A DNA stretch of 42,720 nt from Gemmatimonadota bacterium (GTDB taxonomy: Bacteria > Gemmatimonadota > Gemmatimonadetes > Gemmatimonadales > GWC2-71-9): the NCBI GenBank assembly GCA_039588295.1, contig JBDHAB010000025.1, positions 1 through 42,720 of the forward strand. The letters are read 5' to 3'. Numbering within the stretch: the stretch's first letter is position 1; every line of letters starts with the position of its first letter. The translations under genes were made by a program, and so were the position numbers. Shown here piece by piece: positions 1,691-25,498 of this stretch. The notes under the pieces were generated by a model. That model had not been told where the DNA came from and did not search any database. It saw nothing but the letters and a program-made list of their open reading frames with translations.

Positions 1691-2263
1691 GTGCTGGACG
1701 CCATCGCGCAAGTCATCGAACAGTCCGGGGTGCTCATGTACTTCTTGGCCCCGCTGTTCATGGTCGTCGTCGCGATTCTCCCGATCCCGGCAGAGATCCC
1801 GGCGATGCTGAACGGCATGGTGTTCGGACCAGTGGCGGGAACCGCCATCACCTGGTCCGGGGCCGTGGTCGGAGCGCTGATCAGCTTCGAGCTCGCCCGT
1901 CGGTTCGGCAGACCGCTCGCGGAGCGGTTCGCGGCCAAGCACAGACTCGCACAGGCCGATCGTGTCGTGCTCTCGGTCGGATGGCCCGGGCTCTTGGCTC
2001 TCCGATTCGTGCCCACCATCGCATTCACCCTCGTCAACTGGGCGGCAGGGCTCACGGCGATACGCCGGTGGACCTTCGCCTGGACGACCGCCCTGGGGAT
2101 CATCCCCGGCGCTGTGCTCTTCACTGTCTCAGGAAGCGGACTGAGCGCCCTCTACCGTCGGGCGCCCGCCCTGGCCGTTGCCGGAGCCATCGTGGCCGTG
2201 GTGGTGGTCGCGTGGTCCGCCAGGCGCTATCGCCGGAAGAGCGCCGACAGCATACCAGCCTGA
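1691..2263 (+). CDS. TVP38/TMEM64 (VTT/DedA, SNARE-associated) membrane protein
   Basis: Contains LPIPAE...GMVFGPVAG...SFELARRFGR and LRFVPTIAFTLVNWAAGLT...FAWTTALGIIPG; hydrophobic throughout. Confidence 0.9.
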   Translation: MLDAIAQVIEQSGVLMYFLAPLFMVVVAILPIPAEIPAMLNGMVFGPVAGTAITWSGAVVGALISFELARRFGRPLAERFAAKHRLAQADRVVLSVGWPGLLALRFVPTIAFTLVNWAAGLTAIRRWTFAWTTALGIIPGAVLFTVSGSGLSALYRRAPALAVAGAIVAVVVVAWSARRYRRKSADSIPA

Positions 2264-2373: not shown

Positions 2374-4851
2374 ATGATCACGCTCGAGCACCGCACGCCG
2401 CTCCACGTGCCCGACCTCCATTTCTTCGAGGACCACGGCATCTCATACGCGGTCGACCACGCTGCCCCCAACTGGATCGCAACCGACGCCAGCGGCCGAA
2501 CGCTCCTCGATAGCATTGTCGAGTACGGAGCGCCTCCGACCTTTGGCAACCTCGTCGCCACGTACGCCGCAACGCACGGCCTCGAAGCGGGAAAGGCCTG
2601 GGTGCACGTCCACGATTTCCTGACGGCACTGAACCGGGCGGGAATGGTGTCGGACCGACCAATCACGGCCGATCCCTATCCTGGCAGGGCGCAGCTGGTA
2701 CAGCCCGAGGGACTCCGCGAGTTGTGGATCCAGGTCAACAACGCCTGCAACCTGACCTGCGTACACTGCCTGGTGTCCTCCGGACCGGGGAAAGAGGCAG
2801 GCCTGCCTCCGGAGCAGCTCAAGCAGCTGGTGACGCGGGCCGCGCATCTCGGGCTCGAGCGCCTCTTCCTCACCGGCGGCGAGCCGTTCGTACGCAAGGA
2901 TATCTTCGACCTCATTCGCCACGCCACCGACAAGCACGGCCTCGAGGTCATCGTTCTCACCAACGCCACCGTGTTCCAGGGATCGATCCGAGATAACCTC
3001 GCGACACTCGACCGCGAGGCCGTGCGATTCCAGGTTTCCATTGACGGCGCGCGCCGCGCCACCAACGACCGCATTCGCGGTGCGGGGACATTCGACAAGG
3101 CGCGCGCGGGCGCGCAGCTGCTGACCGAACTCGGGTTCGACCTCTCGCTCTCCACCGTGGTCGCCGCGGACAATCTCTGCGAGCTACCGGAACTGCCGAC
3201 CCTCGCCCAATCGGTGGGGGCGCGCAGTCACCACCTCATGTGGGCGCATCGTCGAGGACGTGCGGCGGCAAGCCGCAACGGGTTCTTCCCAGAGGTACCC
3301 GCACTGCTCGCGGGACTGCGCGACGCGGTCGCCGCCGCGGAAGTGGCCGGAGTGGAACTCGACAATCTCGAAAGCGTCAAGCGACGGGTGAACGGCGTGC
3401 CCGGCGTGAAGTACGACTTGGGCAACGGGGGTTGGGACTCCTTGGGCCTGTACGTAGACGGCAAGGCCTACCCCACGGCCGCGCTGGTGAACGAGCCGCG
3501 ACTACTGTGCGGTGATGCCACCCGCCAGGATCTCGCGGAGATTCTCACATCCTCGGCAGTCGTTCGGCAACTGCGGGAGGCAACCGTCGCCCGCAAGCCG
3601 TCGATGGCCAACGACCCGTTTCGCTTCCTCACCGGCGGCGGTGATTGGGAACACGCATTCTGGGCCAGCGGCGATCCGCTGGGCGACGATCCGTATTACC
3701 CGATCACCGCACATCTCGTGCGCCACGTGATGACCACACTGGGACGCGAGAAGCTCGCTCGTCGCAACACACGCTCCGGGTACGACGCGCCGCGCGTACT
3801 CCACGCGATGGGCCAGGGGGCGATCGCCTGCGGGACGGCGGACGGCGCCGCCGCCGAACGGCCCGTGCTCACGCTGCACTCGAACTGCGTGCTCTCGTTC
3901 GACGTCGACAAGCCGCGCGCCAAGATGCGCGAGTTCTACGGGCAGGCCGCCGAACAGCCGCAGGCCGAGCTTTGCTGCCCGACCAGGTACAACGATTCGG
4001 CCGTCGGGCACATCCCTCAGGAGGTGCTCGACCGCTTCTACGGCTGCGGCTCGCCGATGAGCAGCGCCAATATTACTGAAGGCGAGACGGTGGTAGATCT
4101 GGGGAGCGGGGCGGGCATTGACGTCTTCATCGCCGCCAAGCTGGTCGGACCGTCGGGCCGGGCCATCGGGATCGACATGACCGACCGCATGCTCGAGGTC
4201 GCCCGCGAGAACCAACCGAAGGTCGCCGCGGCGTTGGGCTATGACGTCGTCGAGTTCCGCAAGGGGTTCCTCGAGGACATTCCCGTCGAGAGCCGGTCGG
4301 TCAATCTCGTGACGTCGAACTGCGTGGTGAACCTCTCACCCGACAAGCCGCGCGTGTTCGAGGAAATCTGGCGGGTGCTCGAGAACCACGGTCGCATCGT
4401 CATCTCCGACATCGTCAGCGAGTGGGAGGTCCCGCCGCATCTCAAGGTCAACCCGCAGCTGTGGGGCGAATGCCTCGTGGGAGCGCTCACACAGGACGAG
4501 TTCCTCGCTCAGCTCGAGCAGGCCGGGTTCTACGGGCTGACGACCCTGACCCGCACCTATTGGAAGGAGGTCGAGGGGCACGCCTTCTTCTCGCTTACCA
4601 TCGAGGGATACAAGTACGAGAAAGCCGACGGATGCGTGTATCGAGGACACCGCGCCGTGTACCTCGGTCCGGGGAAAGCGATCGCGGACGAGGAAGGCCA
4701 CCTGTTTCCCCGGAACGAACCCTATGAGGTCTGTACGGACACGGTGGAGAAGCTGCAGCGCACGCCGTACCGGGAGATGTTCGTGATCCTGGAGCCTGGG
4801 GAGAATGCAGCAAGCTACGCGTGCTGCGAGCGCGACGGCGAATGTTGCTGA
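2374..4851 (+). CDS. Fusion of PqqD/RRE-like, radical SAM, degenerate SPASM and ArsM/AS3MT-like SAM-dependent methyltransferase domains
   Basis: CNLTCVHC (2746-2769), LTGGEP, LTNAT and QVSIDG mark the radical SAM core. The C-terminal half has [41 protein letters not shown] and the AS3MT-type tail GHRAVYLGP...DEEGHLF...VCTDT, ending [10 protein letters not shown]. Confidence 0.85.
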
Positions 4852-11035: not shown

Positions 11036-11704
11036 CTAGCGGTTCCGGACCTTGCTGCGAACGTGTAGCCGGACCTCCTCCCGGACCTCAGTCCGCAGAC
11101 GATGGATCTGGTCTGAGAACTCGGTGCAGGCAGTGCCCGCCGAGCCGGACGCCACGGTCACGCTGGTCGCTTCACCGCTCCCCGCGACGACCGCCACCTC
11201 CGCAACCCCTGGCATATGCTCGCACGGCAGGTCCTCCTTTGCCAGGAAGAGGCCCAGTTCCTGATCGGCCCCTACCACCCCGACCGATCCAAACCGGACG
11301 AGCCCGCTCGTGTCCGAAATACACTGCATCGCGTGTTTGACGCCCCCGACGGGACCCCTACGGTCGAACGCATCCGGATCCAAATGGATGCTGCACTCTG
11401 AAAGTTTCTCGAGATCGGCCTCGTCCACGGACGCCAGCTCGATCCTGATACTGTCAACCGTGCCCGGTTTGTGGCGCTCGATGACCACTGCGTCGAGCTT
11501 CCCCACCTTGTCGCCCTCGATGTAGGCGGGCACGAATCCCAAATGCATGGTGACGGGGTTGGGGCTGTGCTCGAGGCTATCGGCCCAGGCTTCTATCTGG
11601 GCCTTCAGTTTCCCCGCGTTACGGACGCCCCACACCACCCCAAGCCCGACCACCACCACGAGCGGGGCTCCCACAGCCACCACGAGTCTCCGAAAGGTCG
11701 ACAT
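11036..11704 (-). CDS. Hypothetical protein with an N-terminal membrane anchor
   Basis: ATG after GAGGA, one N-terminal TM segment and a soluble domain with 4 Cys. Confidence 0.65.
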   Translation of the reverse strand: MSTFRRLVVAVGAPLVVVVGLGVVWGVRNAGKLKAQIEAWADSLEHSPNPVTMHLGFVPAYIEGDKVGKLDAVVIERHKPGTVDSIRIELASVDEADLEKLSECSIHLDPDAFDRRGPVGGVKHAMQCISDTSGLVRFGSVGVVGADQELGLFLAKEDLPCEHMPGVAEVAVVAGSGEATSVTVASGSAGTACTEFSDQIHRLRTEVREEVRLHVRSKVRNR

Positions 11705-11894
11705 AGGCCTATCCTCGAGTATCCAGAGGGTTCACACCCTAATACGACCCCGGTCCACGGGTGGTTTCAAGTCCGGATCGGAGACCTGCAGGCCCCTCGC
11801 CGACGCCGACGCGCTCCCCCTTGCGGTTCCCGGAGCGGCGCGCTTCCCTTCCAGCGGAATCCAAGGGTTCCGACCTTTGCCGCGGAGCTATGCC

Positions 11895-12557
11895 GTGTCG
11901 TTCTGCCAGGAGCAGCTCACTCGCCTCAAACCCCTGTGGGATCTGATGCTCGACCACCGGTTCCTGCGCGAGACTCGGGACGGAACGATTTCGGATGAGC
12001 GTTTTGCGGTGTGGATGCGTCAGGACTACCTGTTCGTCGAGGCCGCCATTCCGTTCATCGCGGCGCTCATCGCCAAGGCCCCACAGCATCACTGGGAGCC
12101 ACTCACCGGGGTGATCGGCGCGCTCGAGAAAGAGCTCACGCTATTCGAGGAGCGGGCAGCCGCGGTGGGGGTGACCCTCCGGGGTGCGCCGCCATCCTTC
12201 ACCAATCACGCCTACATCCAGTTCCTCCTGGCAGCCGCGTACCGCGCGTCCTACGCCGAGGGCTATACCGTGCTCTACGCTGCGGAAAAGGCCTACTTCG
12301 ACTCGTGGAGCGTGGTCCAGGCAGGCATCGACCGAGACTCGAAGTGGTACCCGTTCGTGGAGAACTGGGCCGGCGAGGCGTTTGCCCAGTACGTGGCCTA
12401 TCTCGAAGGAGAGCTCGATCGACTGGCCAACGAGGCCGGCCCCGGGGAACGAGGGCGCATGGCCGAGCTGTTCGAGTTCACCACCAAGTACGAGATTGCC
12501 TTCTGGGAGATGGCGGCAACGGGAGAGGGATGGCCGGGAATGAGGGCGAAGGGATAA
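11895..12557 (+). CDS. tenA: TenA family protein, Cys-less TenA_E-like type
   Basis: GTG start after GGAG. Contains HRFL...DGTI...WMRQDYLFV and YEIAFWEMA; LYAAEKAY stands where TenA_C has LLPC. Confidence 0.85.
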   Translation: MSFCQEQLTRLKPLWDLMLDHRFLRETRDGTISDERFAVWMRQDYLFVEAAIPFIAALIAKAPQHHWEPLTGVIGALEKELTLFEERAAAVGVTLRGAPPSFTNHAYIQFLLAAAYRASYAEGYTVLYAAEKAYFDSWSVVQAGIDRDSKWYPFVENWAGEAFAQYVAYLEGELDRLANEAGPGERGRMAELFEFTTKYEIAFWEMAATGEGWPGMRAKG

Positions 12558-12580
12558 GGGATAAGGGAGAAGGGAGAGGG
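12536..12580 (+). repeat. GGGNNAA heptamer tandem repeat with G-quadruplex potential
   Basis: GGGAATGA-GGGCGAA-GGGATAA-GGGATAA-GGGAGAA-GGGAGA-GGG, spanning the first tenA stop codon. Confidence 0.8.
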
Positions 12581-12595
12581 CTGCGACGGCTGCCT

Positions 12596-13261
12596 ATGAC
12601 GCTCACCGATCAGTGTTTCAACGCGGCGAAGCCCATCTGGGATGAGCAGCTACGACACAAGTTCGTGCAGCAACTCGGTGACGGCTCCTTGGCCGTCGAG
12701 CGGTTCAGGCGTTGGGTGCTGCAAGACTACCTCTACCTCAAGGAATTCGCGCGCATCTTTGCGTGGGCCGTGGCGAAGGCGGATCAGCTGGACTCGATGG
12801 GCTGGTACGCCAAGGTCCTCGATCTCACGCTAAACACCGAGATGGCGCTGCACCGGACGTACGCGGAGCGCTTCGGCGTTTCGCCGGAGGAGCTCGAGGC
12901 GCAGCCGATGTGGCCGACGACTCGAGCGTACACGGATTTCCTCGTGCGCACGTCCGCCGACGGCGACATGGCGGATCTCCTCGCGGCGCTGTTACCCTGC
13001 GCGTGGGGCTATGTCTACATCGCGCAGGACCTGGCGGGGCAAGACCCACCGGAAGATCAGCGATACGCCGATTGGATTGCCCAATACGCTTCCCAGGAGT
13101 TCGCCGACGCGGCGGAGTGGCTCAAGGCCGAGCTCAATCGGGTTGCTGCCGGCGCAACCGAAGAGAAGCGAAGCCGACTCATCGAGCTGTTCGTGTTATC
13201 CAGCCGCTACGAGTGGAGTTTCTGGGAGATGTGTTGGCACGGAGAGGCATGGCGTCCCTGA
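12596..13261 (+). CDS. tenA: Thiaminase II / aminopyrimidine aminohydrolase (TenA_C)
   Basis: HKFVQQLGDGSL, QDYLYL, catalytic LLPCAWGY, YADWIAQY and SSRYEWSFWEM. Confidence 0.92.
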   Translation: MTLTDQCFNAAKPIWDEQLRHKFVQQLGDGSLAVERFRRWVLQDYLYLKEFARIFAWAVAKADQLDSMGWYAKVLDLTLNTEMALHRTYAERFGVSPEELEAQPMWPTTRAYTDFLVRTSADGDMADLLAALLPCAWGYVYIAQDLAGQDPPEDQRYADWIAQYASQEFADAAEWLKAELNRVAAGATEEKRSRLIELFVLSSRYEWSFWEMCWHGEAWRP

Positions 13262-16771: not shown

Positions 16772-16859
16772 GCCCGCTGCGTGACGTCGAGCCTCAGCTC
16801 CCGGTGTCTTCGAGACTGGCGGCGCTTCACGGGGTTCCGTAGGTTTGCCAACACCACTC

Positions 16860-19646
16860 ATGCTCCGACGGATTCTCGACTCGCCGCTGATCAAGCTCGC
16901 CGTGTACTACGCGGGGGTGGTCGCGGCCGCGTTTCTGCTCGCTCGGCTGTTTCCGGAATTGCGGGAGGGATTATCCCTCGAGCACTTGCAGCAGCCCGGG
17001 GCGGGAGGGATCGAGGACCTCGTCAATCCGAGCGGCTCGACTGCCCAGGGGTTTTTGACCCAGCCACACGTTGGCGCCCGGACGTTGTTGGCGGTACTCG
17101 GCGGCCTCGCCCTCGTGGCACCCATCGCGTGGGTCTACATGGTGACCAAGCGGGAAGTGCGATACGACCAATCGGTCGTGCACACCATCATCATGCTGCC
17201 AATCGCGGTGACCGGAATCGTGATCATCGTCCAGTGGTCGATCCCCCTGGCATTTTCGCTGGCCGGGATCGTCGCAGCCGTCCGCTTCCGCAACACCCTG
17301 CAGGACACGAAGGACGCCGTCTACGTCTTCCTCGCGATCGGTGTCGGGCTCGCTGCCGGGGTCGAGGCACTGCCCATCGCGCTCATCGTATCTGCGTGCT
17401 TCAACTCCGTCCTCATTGTGCTCTGGCTGTTCGAGGTCGGCAACATCTACGGGCCCGAGAAACAGCAAGCACCAACCCTATCGACGACGGCGATCACGAC
17501 GGTGCCCAGCAGGAAACGCGGGTCCAAAATGCTCGACGTGTCCAAGCTGTCGTTCAAACGGGAAGAGACGGCCGAGCGGGTATCGGCTCCCGTGATCAAT
17601 CCCGAGCTGAGTCTCCTGGAGTTCCACGGCCGCGTCCTCGCACTCGCTGAGGATCCGAGCATTCCCGTGCTCGCCCGCACGCGGTTCCTCTCGATCTTCA
17701 GCTCAAACCTCGACGAGTTCTTCATGGTGCGAGTGGGTGGACTCAAGCAGGCGGTGACGGAGGGTGTGAGCAAGCGCTCGCTCGACGGACTGACGCCCAG
17801 CGAACTCCTGCAGGCAATCAACGTGAAGCTTCGGGCCTTGGTTCGTCGGCAGTACCGGTGCTTCGAGGAACTCCAATCGGACGGCCTCGCAGCCAAAGGA
17901 ATACATCTTCGACGCTTGGACGACCTGGACGAGCAGGAGCAGAGCTACCTCCGCGACTACTTCGAAGAACGGGTGCTCCCACTGCTCACCCCGAAGGCCA
18001 TCACGCTGGCCGGCGGTCATCCGTTCCCCTTCATCGAGGATCTCCTCCTGTCGCTCGCGGTCATCGTACGAGACCCCCGCACGTCACGCGACCATTTCGT
18101 GCACCTCGAAGTGTCCGACGCGCTGCCCCGCTTTATCCAGCTGCCCGACTCGCAGGACTTCGTGCCGGTCGAGGAGGCGATCCGCGCGAACGTCGGCGAC
18201 CTGTATCCCGGACGACAGGTTCTGGAGGTCCAGCCGTTTCGAATCACTCGGGCTGTCGGCCTGAAGATCGATGAGAAGACAGCGACCAACTTTCTCGAAG
18301 CGCTCGAGGATGAGCTGCGGCACCGTCCCGCGGGCGGCATTGTCCGCATCGAGGTCGAGCGTACGATGCCCTTCCCGGTGCGTGATCTCCTGCTTCGCGA
18401 GCTTCGCCGCGAAGACGAGAGCAAGGGAATCCCGCTCCAGGCCGCGGACATGTACGAAGTCGACGATATGGTCGATCTGGGTTCGCTTCGGGAGCTTGCA
18501 GAGATCTCGCGATCCGAACTCGACTACCCTCAGTTCACGCCGGCCGAGCCGATTGCCACGGAGGAATCGATCTTTTCGGTGTTGGATCGCGGGGATGTGT
18601 TGGTGCACCATCCTTATGACTCCTTCGACGCGACCACGGAACGGCTGATCGTCGAGGCCGCACGGGATCCTGACGTCGCCGCGATCAAGCTCACGTTGTA
18701 TCGACCGGGCGGACCGTCAGCGCTCGCAGAGGCACTCGTTCAAGCGGCTACGGCAGGGAAGGACGTTTCCGTCTTTGTCGAGGTGAAGGCGCGGTTCGAC
18801 GAGGAGCTCAACATCTATTGGGCCAAACAACTCGAACGGGGCGGCATCCACGTCGTCACCGGGCTCGTCAAGTACAAGACACACGCGAAGGTCGCCCTCG
18901 TCGTGAGACGGCACAACGGCCGGGTCCACCGCTATGCGCACGTCGGTACCGGCAACTACAACGCGGCGACGGCCCGCCAGTACACTGACCTCGGCCTGCT
19001 GACAGCGGACGAGACCATCTGTGCAGATGTGAACCACCTGTTCAACGAGCTGACCGGTTCCGCGCGTGCGCCGGCGGGAGATTTTCCGCAGCTGTTGGTG
19101 GCGCCCACGAACATGTTGCAGCATTTCGTGGAGCTGATCGATCGTGAGGCGGAGCACGCCCGCGCGGGACGACCAGGGCATATTCGTGCGAAGATCAACG
19201 GACTTGCCGACGGCGAAGTGATCGAGGCGCTGTACCGCGCCTCTCAGGCAGGCGTGAAGATCGACCTTGTAGTGCGCGGCATTTGCTCGCTCCGGCCCGG
19301 CGTGGCCGATCTTTCGGAGAACATCCGGGTGGTGAGTGCGCTCGGGCGGTACTTGGAGCATGCACGCATCTTCTACTTCGCGAATGGCGGTGCGGCCGAG
19401 TACTTCATCGGCTCAGCCGATTGGAGACCCCGAAATCTTCGACGGCGGGTGGAGGTCGTCGCGCCGGTGCGTGACCCGGAGGCGCGGCGGCGGCTCGACC
19501 ACATTCTCGAGGTAGAGCTGACCGACCCCACCGCCTGGCAGCTCCAGGCCGACGGCTTGTACGAGTCGGCCCCCGGTGGGGGTCCCGACGCGCGAAGCGC
19601 ACAACAGCAGTTTATGGACGAGAGTGCGGCTGGGGTGCCGGTCTAG
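16860..19646 (+). CDS. ppk1: Polyphosphate kinase 1 with an N-terminal DUF4956 membrane domain
   Basis: N-terminal LAFSLAGIVAAVRFRNTLQDTKDAVYVFLAIGVGLAAG (DUF4956). From about 17590: INPELSLLEF, SSNLDEFFMVRV, HHPYDSF, EVKARFDE, KTHAK, TGNYN, LEHARIF and SADWRPRNL. Confidence 0.88.
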   Translation: MLRRILDSPLIKLAVYYAGVVAAAFLLARLFPELREGLSLEHLQQPGAGGIEDLVNPSGSTAQGFLTQPHVGARTLLAVLGGLALVAPIAWVYMVTKREVRYDQSVVHTIIMLPIAVTGIVIIVQWSIPLAFSLAGIVAAVRFRNTLQDTKDAVYVFLAIGVGLAAGVEALPIALIVSACFNSVLIVLWLFEVGNIYGPEKQQAPTLSTTAITTVPSRKRGSKMLDVSKLSFKREETAERVSAPVINPELSLLEFHGRVLALAEDPSIPVLARTRFLSIFSSNLDEFFMVRVGGLKQAVTEGVSKRSLDGLTPSELLQAINVKLRALVRRQYRCFEELQSDGLAAKGIHLRRLDDLDEQEQSYLRDYFEERVLPLLTPKAITLAGGHPFPFIEDLLLSLAVIVRDPRTSRDHFVHLEVSDALPRFIQLPDSQDFVPVEEAIRANVGDLYPGRQVLEVQPFRITRAVGLKIDEKTATNFLEALEDELRHRPAGGIVRIEVERTMPFPVRDLLLRELRREDESKGIPLQAADMYEVDDMVDLGSLRELAEISRSELDYPQFTPAEPIATEESIFSVLDRGDVLVHHPYDSFDATTERLIVEAARDPDVAAIKLTLYRPGGPSALAEALVQAATAGKDVSVFVEVKARFDEELNIYWAKQLERGGIHVVTGLVKYKTHAKVALVVRRHNGRVHRYAHVGTGNYNAATARQYTDLGLLTADETICADVNHLFNELTGSARAPAGDFPQLLVAPTNMLQHFVELIDREAEHARAGRPGHIRAKINGLADGEVIEALYRASQAGVKIDLVVRGICSLRPGVADLSENIRVVSALGRYLEHARIFYFANGGAAEYFIGSADWRPRNLRRRVEVVAPVRDPEARRRLDHILEVELTDPTAWQLQADGLYESAPGGGPDARSAQQQFMDESAAGVPV

Positions 19647-19698
19647 CGAGGCATCATACTGGCGCCACGCACCGCTCAGCGCGAGTGAGCGCGGTGTC

Positions 19699-21168
19699 TT
19701 ACCGGGCGAGATTCACGTTGAGAAACTCCGGCTCGCCAGTGACCTCGCGGTCGACCACAGGGGCGAGCCACTCCGGCACCACCACGTCGACCTCCGGCGA
19801 AGCAAGCTCGATCTCTGCGAGAAACAGCTCGCGGTCGAGGAACTCATCGAGTTCCCAGGTAAAAGCGCCGTCGGGTACGTAGTATCGCCGCTTGGTGACT
19901 CGTCGTCCCTCGGTCAGCGGCCAGAGCCGCTCGAAGACCTCCTGCGACGCTGCTTCCTCCACCTCGGTCCGGACCAACCCCTCACCCAGCTTCACCGTTC
20001 GAAAGTAGTGCACGCCGTTCTTGCCACGTGTGCGTCGCACACGCTCGAGGAGTCGAGTTCCGGGCAGCCAACCCTGGTCGACGTCGACCTTGTCGGCCGT
20101 CTCGATGACCTTGGGAAGCCGGGTGAGCAGATACTTGCGTTCCACCTCGACGCCCTCATCGGGACGTTCGGGGGTCACCAGCGCTTGGAGCACGAGCGTG
20201 ATATCGCGATCCAGCAGCATCGTTTGGTCCTGGCGCCAGGCACAGAACCTCGCGAAGGTCTCCTCCTGTGCCTCTCGGCAGAGCTTCGTGAGCGCCAGCA
20301 TGCCGGGCGTCGCATTCCGCCGCAGGATGCGTCGCCGCTCGCGCGTGTCGAGTCCCTCTTCCTTCTGGAGCTTGCTCAAACGTCGGGCATGTTCTGCGGC
20401 CGCTCGCTCGCTGGTCACCACGAACTCCTCCTCCACGACCTGGGCGTCGTGCAGCTCCCCAAGCACGGTTTGGAGATCCTTCAGCTGCCGCACAGCCGTC
20501 TTCGCCGGTGGAACTCGATCAACCACGAGCTCGAGCAGGTACCGCAATCGTTTGGCGCTGATGCGGGCGGAGTGCACGGCTGCTTCGTCGCGCGCGGACC
20601 GGATTTCCCTCCCCCGCTCTCGAAGCGTTGCGGCATGGTCCTCTACCAGCGCACGCAGCGCGCCAGCGAACGTCAGGCGCGTGCCGTCTCCTCCCAGCGG
20701 TTGTTCCGCCGCTGCGGCGAGGCGCTGCCGCAGGCTTCGATCGAGTCGTGCGAAGTCCTGTCGCACCGCACGCACGCTGGCATTGTACTCGCGCTGTTGC
20801 GTCTCCTCGAGTCGCTCGAGGAACCAGTTGGCGCCGACCCGCTGCGTGGGAGTGAGGTCCGATCGCCTGCCTTTGACCCAGAGAACTTGCACTTCCGCGT
20901 CACGCGCCGTGTTAGTCGCGCGCGTGAGATCCCGCAGCCGGCGGCGGAGTTTGTTCGGTACCTGGTGCTCCACGTACGGGCGGAACGCCCGCAGCACGCT
21001 TCGCAACCGGCGGAGGGCGACCCGGAAGTCGTGGAGCGCATCCTCGTCCGCGGCGTCCTTCAGGCGACGGCGCGCCTGCCTGGCGTCATCCAGCAGTGCC
21101 ACACCGATGGTATCGACGGCTTCGACCGGGGTGCGACCGAGGAGACCTCGTGAGTACCTAGGCACCAT
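19699..21168 (-). CDS. CHAD + CYTH domain protein
   Basis: CHAD motifs ALHDFRVALRRLR and HSARISAKRLRY...LGELHD; CYTH motif EVERKYL...KRRY...WELDEF...AEIEL. The ATG at 21168 overlaps the sixA 3' end; the exact start is uncertain. Confidence 0.88.
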   Translation of the reverse strand: MVPRYSRGLLGRTPVEAVDTIGVALLDDARQARRRLKDAADEDALHDFRVALRRLRSVLRAFRPYVEHQVPNKLRRRLRDLTRATNTARDAEVQVLWVKGRRSDLTPTQRVGANWFLERLEETQQREYNASVRAVRQDFARLDRSLRQRLAAAAEQPLGGDGTRLTFAGALRALVEDHAATLRERGREIRSARDEAAVHSARISAKRLRYLLELVVDRVPPAKTAVRQLKDLQTVLGELHDAQVVEEEFVVTSERAAAEHARRLSKLQKEEGLDTRERRRILRRNATPGMLALTKLCREAQEETFARFCAWRQDQTMLLDRDITLVLQALVTPERPDEGVEVERKYLLTRLPKVIETADKVDVDQGWLPGTRLLERVRRTRGKNGVHYFRTVKLGEGLVRTEVEEAASQEVFERLWPLTEGRRVTKRRYYVPDGAFTWELDEFLDRELFLAEIELASPEVDVVVPEWLAPVVDREVTGEPEFLNVNLAR

Positions 21169-21673
21169 CACTCCCCAGTGCCCGGAGGTGTTTCGGCGCC
21201 AACAGCCAGCGGATGACCCCTTTCCCCGGTCCAACCCTACCCACGAACTCCACCAGACATGCCGCTCCCTTCTTGAGCGATATCCCAGGGCTGCGCGACT
21301 GGGTCGTGAGCCACGAAACCAACAGGCTCAGGTCCGGCTCGTGACCGACGAGCGCCACCGTCCCGAGGTCGTGGTGTTTCCGTAACCACGCGATGACAGC
21401 ATTCGGCTCCGATCCCGGCGTCAGGATCGGGACCGACTCCACCGTTGCATCGGGGTACGCAGCGCTGAGGATCGTGGCCGTCTGCACAGCCCGTGTGAGG
21501 GGGCTGGTGGCGAGGAGATCGATGCGCGGTACCACCGTGGTGAGCCCCCCCGCCGCTTCCTTCATGCGGCGTGCGCCCTCTGGTGTGAGCGGGCGCTGCT
21601 CGTCGGTCTGCCCGGTACGTGCAAACACCTCTCGATCTTCCGCAATGGCATGACGTACAACGAGCACACGCAT
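21158..21673 (-). CDS. sixA: Phosphohistidine phosphatase SixA
   Basis: VVRHAIA, RPLTPEG, TSPLTRAVQTA and LVGHEPDL. Confidence 0.9.
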   Translation of the reverse strand: MRVLVVRHAIAEDREVFARTGQTDEQRPLTPEGARRMKEAAGGLTTVVPRIDLLATSPLTRAVQTATILSAAYPDATVESVPILTPGSEPNAVIAWLRKHHDLGTVALVGHEPDLSLLVSWLTTQSRSPGISLKKGAACLVEFVGRVGPGKGVIRWLLAPKHLRALGSDGA

Positions 21674-21682
21674 CGAACTAGC

Positions 21683-23851
21683 TCACACTGACGTGTCGAC
21701 GGATTGCTCGTCCTCGTGCGGTTGGCGAAGGATGGGACGAAACGGAGGATGAACCTTGGTTTGTTTCCGCGCCGCCCGACGGGCGAACTTCTGGAGCACC
21801 ATCTGCGAACGCACCGCCTTCTCCTCTTCGCCTCGCGTTCGTCTCACGTACGTCCCGTCGGCCTGCAGCATCCGCGCCTTGACGTTGTCGGTCAGCTGGA
21901 CCGCCATGATCTCCTCGACGATCCGCGTCTTGAGTCGGGCGTCAACAATGGGAAACATGAGCTCGATGCGCCGGAAGAAATTGCGGGGCATCCAGTCTGC
22001 GCTCCCGAGGAAGATCTCTGGATCGCCAGCGTTCTCGAAGTAGAAGATGCGCGAGTGCTCGAGAAACTTGTCGACGATGCTGACCACACGGATGTTCTCC
22101 GAAAGACCCGGCAGGCCCGGACGCAGGCAGCATGGTCCGCGAATGATCAACTCGATCTGGACGCCAGCCTGCGAGGCCTTGTACAGTTGGTCGATGACGG
22201 AATGCTCCACGAGCGCATTCATCTTCACCATGATGCGCGCTGGCTTTCCCTCCTCCGCGTGGCTCCGTTCCCGCTTGATCAGCTCGACCACGCGTTCGCG
22301 CAGCAAGACCGGGGCAAGGTCGAATCGACGCCACTCCTGGGCCCGTGAATACCCCGTGAGCAGGTTGAATAGCGCGGTCGCATCCTCGCAGAGGTCCGGG
22401 TCGGCCGTGAACAGACCCAAGTCGGTGTAGGTACGAGCAGTCACCGGATTGTAGTTGCCGGTCGACAGGTGGAGATACCGTCGGATGCCACCCTGCTCCC
22501 GCCGGACGACGAGCGCCGCCTTGCAATGGGTCTTGAGCCCCACCACTCCGTAGACCACGTGAACCCCTGCCTGCTCGAGCGACCGCGCCCACCCAATGTT
22601 GTTCTGCTCTTCGAACCGCGCCCTGAGTTCAACGAGTGCCGTGACCTGCTTCCCGTTCTGGGCCGCCCGGATGAGCGCCGAGATGATCGCGCTGGGGGCA
22701 CTCGTACGATAGAGCGTCTGCTTGATGGCGAGCACATTGGGGTCGTCAGCTGCGTGCTCGACGAAATCGGACACGGCACCAAACGACTCGTACGGGTGAT
22801 GAACCATCACGTCCTGCTGGCGGATGACGTCGAAGATGTCGCGGTCCTGCACGAAGGCGGGTACGACACGAGGCATGAGCGGCTCGTCCTTGAGCTCTCT
22901 GAATCCGTCGATGTCGTGCAACCGCCAGAAGGCGGTGAGATCAATGGGACCTTCGATGCGGTATACGTCACCCGATCCCAACTCGAGCGCCGTGCTCAGC
23001 ATCTGCGCAAACTCTTCAGAAGCGTCCGCGGAGATCTCGAGCCGCACCGGGTCGCTCCGCAACCGCTGCCGCAGACTCTCCTCGATCATCTCCAGCAGGT
23101 CCTCCGCCGCTTCCTCCTGAATCGTGAGATCGGTATTGCGCGTCACCCGGAAGATGGTGGAACCGAGCACTCGGAACCCGCCGAACAGCGATTGCACATG
23201 TTCGATAATGAGATCTTCGAGCAGCAGGTAGCGAACGTGGTCGGCGCCCTGCGAAACGACGACGAGGCGATCGAGGACCGCCGGTACCTGCACCACGGCG
23301 GGCAGGGGCTCGGCATCCGGGTCATCGGAGGCCTGTACGAGCAGCGCAATATTGAGGCTCTTGTTGTGCACGTGGGGAAACGGGTGACCGGGGTCGATCG
23401 CCAGCGGCGTCAGCACCGGATAGATGCTGGCCTGAAACAACTGATCGACCATCTCGCGTTCCTCCGGTGTGAGCTCCCCATACTGCATCCGCGTCACCCC
23501 GGCCGTGTGCAGCCCAGGGAATACCTCCTCCCGCAACACGCGGTACTGCTCGCCGACGAGTTCGTGCGCTCGTGGATCGATCGCAGCCAACTGCTCCGCC
23601 GGGCCCATGCCATCGGCCCCGTAGTCCTGGGGCTCGACGCCGGCGTGAACCTGTTCCTGCAGTCCAGCCACACGGACCTCGAAGAACTCATCAAGATTCG
23701 AGCTGAAGATGGCGAGGAATTTGAGCCGCTCGAGCAACGGGTTCGTCGCATCCTGCGCCTCTTCCAGCACCCTGGCATTGAACTCCAGCCAGCTCAGCTC
23801 GCGATTGATGTACTGCTCAGACGGAAACTTCGGTTTTGGACGCTTGCCCAT
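21683..23851 (-). CDS. ppk1: Polyphosphate kinase 1
   Basis: YINRELSWLEFNARVL, SSNLDEFFEVRV, HHPYESF, KQTLYR, KTHCK, TGNYN, FLEHSRI and SADWMPRN. Confidence 0.97.
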   Translation of the reverse strand: MGKRPKPKFPSEQYINRELSWLEFNARVLEEAQDATNPLLERLKFLAIFSSNLDEFFEVRVAGLQEQVHAGVEPQDYGADGMGPAEQLAAIDPRAHELVGEQYRVLREEVFPGLHTAGVTRMQYGELTPEEREMVDQLFQASIYPVLTPLAIDPGHPFPHVHNKSLNIALLVQASDDPDAEPLPAVVQVPAVLDRLVVVSQGADHVRYLLLEDLIIEHVQSLFGGFRVLGSTIFRVTRNTDLTIQEEAAEDLLEMIEESLRQRLRSDPVRLEISADASEEFAQMLSTALELGSGDVYRIEGPIDLTAFWRLHDIDGFRELKDEPLMPRVVPAFVQDRDIFDVIRQQDVMVHHPYESFGAVSDFVEHAADDPNVLAIKQTLYRTSAPSAIISALIRAAQNGKQVTALVELRARFEEQNNIGWARSLEQAGVHVVYGVVGLKTHCKAALVVRREQGGIRRYLHLSTGNYNPVTARTYTDLGLFTADPDLCEDATALFNLLTGYSRAQEWRRFDLAPVLLRERVVELIKRERSHAEEGKPARIMVKMNALVEHSVIDQLYKASQAGVQIELIIRGPCCLRPGLPGLSENIRVVSIVDKFLEHSRIFYFENAGDPEIFLGSADWMPRNFFRRIELMFPIVDARLKTRIVEEIMAVQLTDNVKARMLQADGTYVRRTRGEEEKAVRSQMVLQKFARRAARKQTKVHPPFRPILRQPHEDEQSVDTSV

Positions 23852-23854
23852 GAC

Positions 23855-25498
23855 TCAACTCCGACCCTTCACCGCCCGCTGGTTCCCATGCCTCGTGCGG
23901 CTCGCCGTGCCTTGGCGACGCGGTCTCGACCACTCGAGGATCACCGGCGTGTCAAATGTCTTTTCGAACAACCCACTCTTCCGCTCGGCATCCATCAGCT
24001 CGACCTGCGGTCGGTGAGCCGCCGCAACGCGGATCCGAACCCCGTCGTCGTCGACGTAGGTCCGTATACCCGTCACCACCTGCCCGTGGGTGCGATCGAG
24101 CCCGTCGGCGACCCGAAGAATCCCGCTCAGCTGCCGCACCAGCTCACGATCCGACCGGTCCAGCCGCCCAAAGTTTTCATGCGACTTCTTCGGTGTGGCG
24201 CGGCGGTGGTAGCGGGCCACGTTGGCGATCAACTCGACCTCACCCGGCGAGAACCCGCGCAGATCGCCATGCATGATCAGGTGGTAAGCGTGCTTGTGGT
24301 GCTTCGCGTGATTGATCAGATACCCCACGTCGTGCAGCAACGCCGCGGCCTCGAGCATGTCACGACCGGCGGATGGAATCTCGAACGGCTCCCGCAGCGC
24401 ATCGAACAGCTGCACCGACAGCGCCGCAACGTGATTGCAGTGTCGCTCATTCGATCGGCACTGGCGCGCGAACTCGCGGACCCAATTCATCCGATCCGGC
24501 GCCGGTGCCCCCCGATCGGCCCCCTCGGCTCCAAGCTCCTCGATCATCGACACGAGCAGACCGTCGCGGACACCCCGGTCGTTGACGAGAATCCGCTGCG
24601 TCCCCAAGCGTTTGGCCAGCCGCGCGATCGATGCCGCCCCAGCCAAGATGATGTCAGCCCGCTTGGGATTGAGGCCACACATGCCACGACGCGCACCAAG
24701 CGGGGTTTCCAGCAGCCGATCCAGCAACCGCACCAGATCGGCCCGGGTGAAGGCGTAGCCCCGGATCTGTGTGAATCGGCCCTCCCGCTCGCACTGCACC
24801 ATCTCGCCAAGATTCGTGAACGTGCCGCCGCTGCCGATCATCAGCTCCGCAGCCATCGGCGGACGCCCAATGATTTGTTTGATCTCAAGGTCGATGGCCC
24901 GGCGCAGCTTCTTCCAGTGCCGATCCTTCAACGGATCGGACTTGACGTACTGCTCCGTGAGTCGAACCGCGCCCAGCGACAGCGAGTGCACCTGGTTGAT
25001 GGCGCCGCCGGCGGCGAGGACGACCTCGACACTCCCACCGCCAATGTCCACCACCGCAATCGACTGTTGATCGAGCTGGAAGTGCCGCGACACGCTCTTG
25101 AAGGCGAGTTGCGCTTCCTCGTCACTGGAGACGATCTCGATGCGCGCACCACACCGGCGCCGGGCCTCGCGGCGAAAAATCTGTCCGTTCGTCGCTTCGC
25201 GCACCGCGCTCGTCGCGACGACACGGAGATCCTTCACCCCGAACCCGTCCGCGATCGCCCGCATCTTGCAGAGCGCCTGGAGCGTGCGCTCCATCGGCCC
25301 ACGGCCGATCTGCCCGGACTTGTAGAGACCGCGGCCGAGCCGCGTCATCTCCCGCTCCTCGTCGAGGACACGATAGTTCCCGTCCGGCTCGACCTCCGCG
25401 ACCACGAGCCGAATCGAGTTCGTGCCCACGTCGATCGCCGCCAGTCGCGGTAACGCATGCGTTGACGGTGAATCGGTCACGGGTTGCTTCACGACCAT
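23855..25498 (-). CDS. ppx: Exopolyphosphatase Ppx/GppA with a C-terminal HD domain
   Basis: AAIDVGTNSIRL, ATSAVREA, DIGGGSVE, GVRDG, AALLHDVG and ANVARYHR. Confidence 0.93.
   Translation of the reverse strand: MVVKQPVTDSPSTHALPRLAAIDVGTNSIRLVVAEVEPDGNYRVLDEEREMTRLGRGLYKSGQIGRGPMERTLQALCKMRAIADGFGVKDLRVVATSAVREATNGQIFRREARRRCGARIEIVSSDEEAQLAFKSVSRHFQLDQQSIAVVDIGGGSVEVVLAAGGAINQVHSLSLGAVRLTEQYVKSDPLKDRHWKKLRRAIDLEIKQIIGRPPMAAELMIGSGGTFTNLGEMVQCEREGRFTQIRGYAFTRADLVRLLDRLLETPLGARRGMCGLNPKRADIILAGAASIARLAKRLGTQRILVNDRGVRDGLLVSMIEELGAEGADRGAPAPDRMNWVREFARQCRSNERHCNHVAALSVQLFDALREPFEIPSAGRDMLEAAALLHDVGYLINHAKHHKHAYHLIMHGDLRGFSPGEVELIANVARYHRRATPKKSHENFGRLDRSDRELVRQLSGILRVADGLDRTHGQVVTGIRTYVDDDGVRIRVAAAHRPQVELMDAERKSGLFEKTFDTPVILEWSRPRRQGTASRTRHGNQRAVKGRS

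Follow-up and report, generated by a model that had tools for sequence, protein, structure and literature searches.

The locus raises the question of what a protein could do that carries, in a single chain, a radical SAM enzyme and a domain resembling the arsenite methyltransferase ArsM. The gene lies at positions 2374-4851 of the forward strand of the window, by which we mean the whole 42,720-nucleotide stretch of Gemmatimonadota DNA that was analyzed, and its 825 codons are open with zero internal stops. A Pfam scan of the 825-aa protein placed Radical_SAM at residues 120-271 (E 1e-22) and Methyltransf_31 at residues 568-718 (E 7e-30). The initial annotation had described one uninterrupted ORF joining a radical SAM domain to an ArsM-like domain, and both the translation and the Pfam scan bear this out. 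The motifs that it listed are also present in the translation (CNLTCVHC at 125-132, LCCP with C534/C535, YGCG with C558, SNCV with C650 and WGEC with C700), as is the CC-x5-CC tail, which reads CC-ERDGE-CC at 817-825. From its N terminus, the chain comprises an RRE-like domain, the radical SAM domain, a SPASM fold free of cluster-binding cysteines, a Cys-His linker, and the ArsM-like methyltransferase.

A search of approximately 5.8 billion proteins returned 662 matches out of 7,995 candidates. The best 120 of these 662, hereafter the close homologues, are 818-845 aa long and share 69-78% identity with the query (self excluded) at 99-100% query coverage. Given that the best 120 of 662 homologues span the whole query and are full-length over both halves, we ruled out an assembly artefact and conclude that the fusion is a real family. 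Named homologues come from Gemmatimonadota and Acidobacteriota, and genome loci extend the fusion to Nitrospirota, Nitrospinota, Omnitrophota, and Thermodesulfobacteriota; the family is large, unnamed, and present in several phyla. The nearest homologues suggest a gemmatimonad origin for the window itself. We found no description of the fusion or its family in literature searches whose coverage excluded most subscription journals and supplements, and the accessible part of PMC9312934 lists the relevant terms in a table and goes no further. A search of the ESM Atlas with the fusion returned generic radical SAM/SPASM clusters only. At the gene itself, a promoter scan found no sigma-70-like promoter and terminator signals were at chance level; a sequencing-run survey listed no RNA run and 14 DNA runs with small shares.

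We asked what kind of radical SAM enzyme makes up the N-terminal half. An AlphaFold2 model of the fusion, built from 112 sequences, had a mean pLDDT of 91.9 and a pTM of 0.90, and in this model the radical SAM half has the scaffold of peptide maturases, with RRE, radical SAM, and SPASM folds. Its best structural matches are CteB, anSME, SkfB, ChlB, SuiB, and TigE, with residues 13-460 matching CteB at Z 30.6 (rmsd 4.5, 408 aligned, 16% identity). The RRE (PqqD)-like domain, assigned from the model, the CteB match, PqqD in relatives, and conservation, covers approximately residues 1-100 (2374-2673, forward strand) and is modeled as three strands followed by three helices; P32 and W34, both on the third strand, are invariant in 120/120 close homologues. 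The radical SAM core (PF04055; approximately residues 114-340, 2713-3393, forward strand) contains the CxxxCxxC motif (2746-2769) and GGEP, and C125, C129, C132, and G168-P171 are likewise kept in all 120. The initial annotation had recognized RRE and SPASM remnants, and these are evident in the fold and in relatives of the fusion, where a domain scan found PqqD down to E 5e-10 and SPASM down to E 1e-12, whereas neither domain appears at Pfam E 0.01 in the whole protein. Scanned as isolated pieces, the SPASM region gave SPASM at E 0.0024, and no PqqD match was found in the N-terminal 109 residues.

The SPASM-fold domain (3406-3708, forward strand), recognized from its fold, its conservation, and the isolated-piece scan, is without cluster-binding cysteines. 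The fusion reads GGGD where relatives read GGGC, and residues 345-445 contain 1 cysteine in the fusion and 1-4 in the 120 close homologues, while 14 of the 53 more distant relatives aligned have 5-12 cysteines there and keep a normal SPASM domain. Loss of the auxiliary clusters in the fusion clade would fit a radical addition that requires only the SAM-binding cluster. We also observed that D348, D424, and H427 are invariant in the close homologues at the places of the relatives' SPASM cysteines, and they are candidates for a replacement metal site or for a structural role. The fusion thus shares the scaffold of residues 13-460 with CteB (5wgg), TigE (8vpo), SuiB, SkfB, and PqqE, and it differs from these RRE-radical SAM-SPASM maturases in its low identity to them (10-23%), in its lost auxiliary-cluster cysteines, and in the attached ArsM.

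Two radical SAM enzymes, ArsS and ArsL, are listed as C-As enzymes in the accessible part of PMC12159101. The available portions of two further sources describe ArsS as adding a 5'-deoxyadenosyl radical to organoarsenic to give dimethylarsinoyl-adenosine, DDMAA (10.64898/2026.04.29.721666), and as working with ArsM in Synechocystis (PMC8552651). The fusion resembles the ArsM and ArsS of Synechocystis sp. PCC 6803 in pairing a radical SAM enzyme with ArsM, and it differs in that its radical SAM half, at approximately 510 aa, has RRE and SPASM folds, is fused, and is without DUF3641. That C-terminal domain of ArsS was not found in the fusion by Pfam, and it is present in an ArsS-ArsM fusion (P0167). 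Against TIGR04167, the ArsS model, the radical SAM half scored 70.6 bits over residues 111-258 only, compared with a cut-off of 300 over approximately 300 positions, and BLAST to an ArsS gave 27% identity over 140 residues. In quick radical SAM core trees, the 7 ArsS rows formed a separate long branch (99-100 SH-aLRT), and 44 rows of the fusion's family fell on one side with weak support (86, unstarred) in a quick mixture tree from which three long rows were left out. At E 0.001 the fusion was not recognized by the ArsL model (NF040542), and the RCCLKC tail of ArsL was not found in its sequence. We therefore rejected membership in ArsS, on the TIGR04167 score, the DUF3641 absence, and the separate branch, and membership in ArsL, on the missing model match and tail. 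These same results support the earlier suggestion that the radical SAM half descends from neither the ArsS nor the ArsL lineage, and our curated HMM search found no curated family that covers it.

Between the two halves, positions 3796-3903 (forward strand) encode a linker, M479-G...C486...H502-S-N-C505, that is conserved in 120/120 close homologues. Its C486...H502-S-N-C505 stretch was absent from the earlier feature list. In standalone and reversed forms of the family (see below), the linker sequence is the very C-terminus of the radical SAM protein, so we count it as part of the radical SAM half; relatives whose SPASM domain is intact mostly read H-C-x-C there (11/14). The C-terminal cysteines of ArsL bind arsenic and are required for its product, according to the accessible parts of two sources (10.1101/2024.02.01.577332; 10.64898/2026.04.29.721666), and by analogy C486 and C505 would be a candidate arsenic-binding arm. 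Residues 481-490 have the lowest internal pLDDT of the model (60), and when the RRE-like domain (1-108) was predicted in complex with the linker (464-512), to see if the latter might dock as a leader peptide does, the score was 0.20, below the mark of 0.32, and spoke neither for nor against docking.

The C-terminal half (3904-4803, forward strand) had been read as an ArsM/AS3MT-like methyltransferase, and phmmer, structure matches, and a methyltransferase tree all uphold that reading. The match of the fusion to CmArsM reached E 5e-39, and As(III) methyltransferases as a group matched at E 5e-39 to 2e-32, compared with 4e-6 for other methyltransferases. Residues 537-810 matched CmArsM (4fr0) at Z 28.9 (rmsd 7.0, 272 aligned) and matched human AS3MT as well, so that a class I SAM methyltransferase fold has As(III) methyltransferases as its top matches in both sequence and structure. 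Counting from the alignments, C558, C650, and C700 fall on C72, C174, and C224 of CmArsM, and C534, of the C534/C535 pair, falls on C46 of CrArsM. Four conserved cysteines are the rule for ArsM in the part of PMC8552651 available, and all four positions are kept in 120/120 close homologues. Because the alignment with CmArsM, CrArsM, and human AS3MT extends to residues 805-818, the AS3MT-type C-terminal domain noted earlier is present too. This half thus shares its fold, four cysteine positions, and C-terminal domain with the ArsM/AS3MT enzymes (CmArsM 4fr0, CrArsM 5evj, human AS3MT 8xt7), and differs from them in falling under curated cut-offs, in being fused, and in not adjoining arsR.

With respect to those cut-offs, the methyltransferase half scored 229.6-232 bits on PRK11873 (cut-off 263), 156-160 bits on NF038099 (cut-off 400), and 199-204 bits on NF040538 (cut-off 500), and since it falls below every curated ArsM cut-off we class it only as ArsM-like. 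An ArsM fused to a true ArsS is also below the PRK11873 cut-off, at 229.5 bits. In the methyltransferase tree, from which P0145 and P0258 were left out, the half fell among ArsMs and grouped at 85/84 with ArsMs fused to ArsS and to a third radical SAM type; the deep branches of this tree are open, so it has no firm sister group. The CC-x5-CC tail (4822-4848, forward strand) ends in CC in 117/120 close homologues, and given that free partner ArsMs and the ArsS-fused ArsM likewise end in CC, we regard it as a trait of the ArsM subfamily. A plain detoxifying ArsM was rejected as the identity of the fusion. The window's own genome also has a distinct arsR (L001, G000:C27:12660-13716), behind which a short arsM clears the PRK11873 cut-off at 330 bits; this pair is for detoxification.

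We surveyed the forms of the family among 150 representatives at 50% clustering. These included the 825-aa form, forms with an intact SPASM domain, standalone radical SAM proteins, a fusion with an added GT2 domain (P0145), and forms of 980-1,080 aa that have an added DUF5714 and mostly are without the first ArsM cysteine; the literature searches found nothing on DUF5714. Three proteins (P0173, P0174, and P0181) have the reverse order, ArsM then radical SAM, and their ArsM halves form a clade of their own in the methyltransferase tree (100/99). Two others, P0225 and P0226, are family radical SAMs with an intact SPASM domain that are fused to a TusA pair and have no ArsM, a possible link to sulfur transfer. 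The DUF5714 forms mostly without the first ArsM cysteine and the TusA forms without ArsM suggest that the family may hold more than one chemistry. The initial annotation had set the fusion against known pathways in which the radical SAM enzyme and ArsM are separate proteins; joining to ArsM is not unique to the family, and fusions of ArsM with three further kinds of radical SAM enzyme exist, namely ArsS (P0167), the third type (P0162), and another SPASM enzyme (P0175). P0175 itself has a different RRE/SPASM-type radical SAM, nearest to the TIGR04463 and CefB models below cut-off, and the same kind of ArsM. That the two halves are functionally tied, as had been supposed, is supported in the homologue survey by the split, reversed, and extended forms.

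The genes around the fusion suggest the pathway to which it may contribute. In the window, the fusion gene follows, by 110 bp, a gene for a VTT (TVP38/DedA-like) membrane protein (1691-2263, forward strand; PF09335, E 2e-24), and it faces an EamA gene. The VTT gene is a recurring member of the ArsS-type cassette and stands beside the fusion in many loci. On another contig, the same genome carries genes for an FAD oxidoreductase, a VTT-like protein, DUF547, TIGR04283 (232.9 bits, cut-off 182), and TIGR04282 (185.1 bits, cut-off 134), and no ArsS (TIGR04167) over cut-off was found in this genome. The "arsenosugar" names of TIGR04282 and TIGR04283 are NCBIfam labels, and TIGR04282 is a hypothetical equivalog. 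We counted neighbors by hand from tblastn searches with score thresholds that we set ourselves; many of the loci come from close kin or lie on short contigs. Among 43 fusion loci, 30 have one or more of the VTT, FAD oxidoreductase, TIGR04282-like, TIGR04283-like, DUF547, and PiT genes (weakly in one case), and a TIGR04282- or TIGR04283-like gene occurs in 11, figures that become 26/39 and 7/39 without four loci that were added after the genome tallies were known. The remaining 13 had no cassette gene nearby. ArsS was not found in any of the 43 loci, and arsR was not found in 55 loci with one ArsR query. Two complete operons (L065 and L066) read TIGR04282-VTT-FAD oxidoreductase-TIGR04283-DUF547-fusion-PiT, and that of L066 also has an ArsC-like gene. 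The fusion thus has the partners of the ArsM and ArsS pathway (TIGR04282, TIGR04283, VTT, FAD oxidoreductase, and DUF547), unlike ArsS, however, mostly without TIGR04169.

Naturally split forms bear on which half is tied to this cassette. In three genomes of the third phylum that we sampled, all without ArsS, the radical SAM half is encoded on its own, by a free gene for approximately 480 aa that overlaps a TIGR04282 gene (203 bits) in two of them and sits at a contig edge in the third. All three also carry a free ArsM that is 51-52% identical to the methyltransferase half of the fusion, and in the two split-form genomes examined this ArsM is followed by VTT and TIGR04283 (267-270 bits). Since the free gene overlaps TIGR04282, the radical SAM half is itself tied to the cassette; the split forms argue against ArsM alone dragging a passenger into it, and they make clear that the halves need not be fused. 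Past the free radical SAM gene, TIGR04282 is in turn overlapped by a gene for a glycerophosphodiester phosphodiesterase (L109:3541-4359 and L111:7740-8570, both on the reverse strand), an activity that would be consistent with glycerophospho-arsenosugar turnover. In L107, a free relative of greater distance immediately follows a TIGR04169-like gene (107.7 bits, cut-off 120), TIGR04169 being the usual neighbor of ArsS, and TIGR04282 is approximately 2.5 kb away. Our search for shorter forms returned mostly contig-cut fragments, which we set aside.

If the fusion takes the place of ArsS, the two should seldom share a genome. Across 463 genomes from three phyla, the family occurs in 32, of which 2 also have ArsS where approximately 9.5 would be expected, with the reservation that kin are not independent. 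In the window's own phylum, 15 of 201 genomes have the family and 19 have ArsS, with an overlap of 0; in the second phylum the counts are 10 and 55 of 151 (overlap 1), and in the third, 7 and 70 of 111 (overlap 1), where the seed genome of each sample was selected for carrying the fusion and a missing match in an incomplete genome does not equal gene absence. Hypergeometric values of 0.21 in the own phylum, where the exclusion taken alone is weak (0.010 only among TIGR04282 carriers), 0.066 in the second, and 0.0099 in the third overstate the exclusion because of that same kinship. TIGR04282 is present in 76 of the 201 own-phylum genomes (both counts include the unpublished genome G153 as one row), among them all 15 family genomes and 18 of the 19 with ArsS. 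TIGR04169, found in 16 own-phylum genomes, is in 16/19 ArsS genomes and 0/15 family genomes. In the window's genus, four of five genomes carry the fusion; G108, the remaining one, has ArsS, and the accessory cluster occupies the same chromosomal setting. The family and ArsS occur together in G282 and G465 only: in G282 the fusion has TIGR04282/04283-like neighbors, and ArsS, together with an ArsM of its own, is near DUF547, VTT, and the oxidoreductase; in G465 neither gene has cassette neighbors.

A third radical SAM type occurs in 29 of the 201 own-phylum genomes; every one of these has TIGR04282, and neither ArsS nor the fusion was found in any of them. This family, also unnamed, has proteins of approximately 320 aa with a C-terminal CYTC motif (P0271; L073:14302-15285, reverse strand); in L073 it lies beside the cassette, and it is mostly followed by a metallophosphoesterase gene. 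In the core tree it is weakly sister to the fusion's family (83, unstarred). A further 14 of the 76 TIGR04282 genomes are without ArsS, the fusion family, or the third type. The cassette is not specific to ArsS.

Because the fusion occupies the position that ArsS has among genes for arsenic sugars, arsenosugar synthesis likely begins with it, and the same downstream genes as ArsS, together with near exclusion, point to the same intermediate. We consider it probable, on balance, that the fusion stands in for ArsM and ArsS together and gives the same DDMAA precursor. The PiT and ArsC-like neighbors would supply arsenite, which the ArsM-like domain would convert to dimethylarsenite, DMAs(III). 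C486 and C505 of the linker may then carry methylarsenic between the two sites, as the ArsL cysteines bind arsenic, and the arsenic would be joined to a 5'-deoxyadenosyl radical by the radical SAM domain, with DDMAA the likely product. In the window's genome, the unlinked TIGR04283 and TIGR04282 products could process the adduct further. The initial annotation had supposed that the product may be new, which is not our leading reading, as the fusion shares the downstream genes of ArsS and almost never co-occurs with it.

Several other readings have to be weighed against a DDMAA product. A C-As bond might form and the product still not be DDMAA, which we judge a minority prospect; examples would be adenosylated monomethyl-arsenic, a thio-arsenical, or an adduct that undergoes another radical step, feeding a variant arsenosugar or arsenolipid. 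The scaffold differs from that of ArsS, MAs(III) would fit the pair of linker cysteines no less than DMAs(III), and the relatives include proteins with TusA pairs, DUF5714, or intact SPASM clusters; the two genomes that retain both enzymes and the contrasting occurrence of TIGR04169 in the own phylum, given above, also lean this way. The downstream genes in common with ArsS and the near exclusion speak for DDMAA, however, and no fusion-specific tailoring gene recurs across clades in the neighborhoods surveyed. A similarly modest chance attaches to the idea that a peptide-maturase scaffold was turned into a C-As enzyme whose cysteine tail replaced the peptide and would swing methylarsenic from the attached ArsM to the radical site, and whose auxiliary clusters were dropped, with an organoarsenical product other than DDMAA. 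It is unlikely that the substrate is not, or not only, arsenic and is another thiophilic element (Sb, Se, or Te) or a thiol, as the missed ArsM cut-offs, the failure to find arsR near the fusion, and the below-cut-off resemblance of the relatives' DUF5714 to the metal-binding selenoprotein MbdU might suggest. Against such a substrate, As(III) methyltransferases head the matches in sequence and structure by a wide margin over other methyltransferases, the four ArsM cysteines are kept, an ArsS-fused ArsM scores the same on PRK11873, and one operon has an ArsC-like gene.

The structural matches to CteB and its kin, and the invariant P32 and W34 on the third RRE strand, could also point to a peptide or protein maturase as the N-terminal half, with ArsM its tailoring or passenger domain. 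This is quite improbable, since the SPASM cysteines are lost, the free radical SAM forms are coupled to TIGR04282, and the window has no space for a precursor gene beside the ORF. Moreover, a search confined to small ATG-started ORFs close to the gene, which covered 238 such frames of 15-76 aa at 44 loci, turned up none shared across clades, and those common to close kin were only shadows of neighboring genes. Least probable of all, and barely to be expected, is a transfer of a 3-amino-3-carboxypropyl group like that of ArsL, giving an arsinothricin-type compound. The fusion does resemble ArsL and ArsM in being a radical SAM enzyme with an ArsM partner and a conserved cysteine tail, which recalls the RCCLKC of ArsL as its accessible description gives it, but the tail is a different one, the ArsL model does not match at E 0.001, and the partner genes are others, of glycosyltransferase type.

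On the reading of a converted maturase scaffold, the fusion's family, ArsS, and the third type would give bacteria at least three interchangeable radical enzymes for one arsenic cassette, two of these unnamed. Surveys that target arsS would miss carriers, as the 76 cassette genomes of the own phylum include 18 with ArsS, 15 with the family, and 29 with the third type. A third C-As-forming radical SAM lineage, on a peptide-maturase scaffold, would also widen this chemistry beyond ArsS and ArsL. Since fused and naturally split forms can be compared, the single-chain fusion is a direct tool for the question of how ArsM passes reactive methylarsenite on to the radical enzyme.

The rest of the window holds several features of its own. 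A DUF5916 gene at 1-1581 is cut by the contig start and appears frame-shifted near 570-595, where an ORF at 194-595 stops and the Pfam match runs from approximately 586 in another frame. Two adjacent genes with TenA/THI-4 domains lie at 11547-13261. At 16845-25498 lies a cluster of polyphosphate genes, two for polyphosphate kinase 1 together with CHAD and Ppx; in the frame of the first kinase (933 aa), a DUF4956 domain precedes the kinase in frame.
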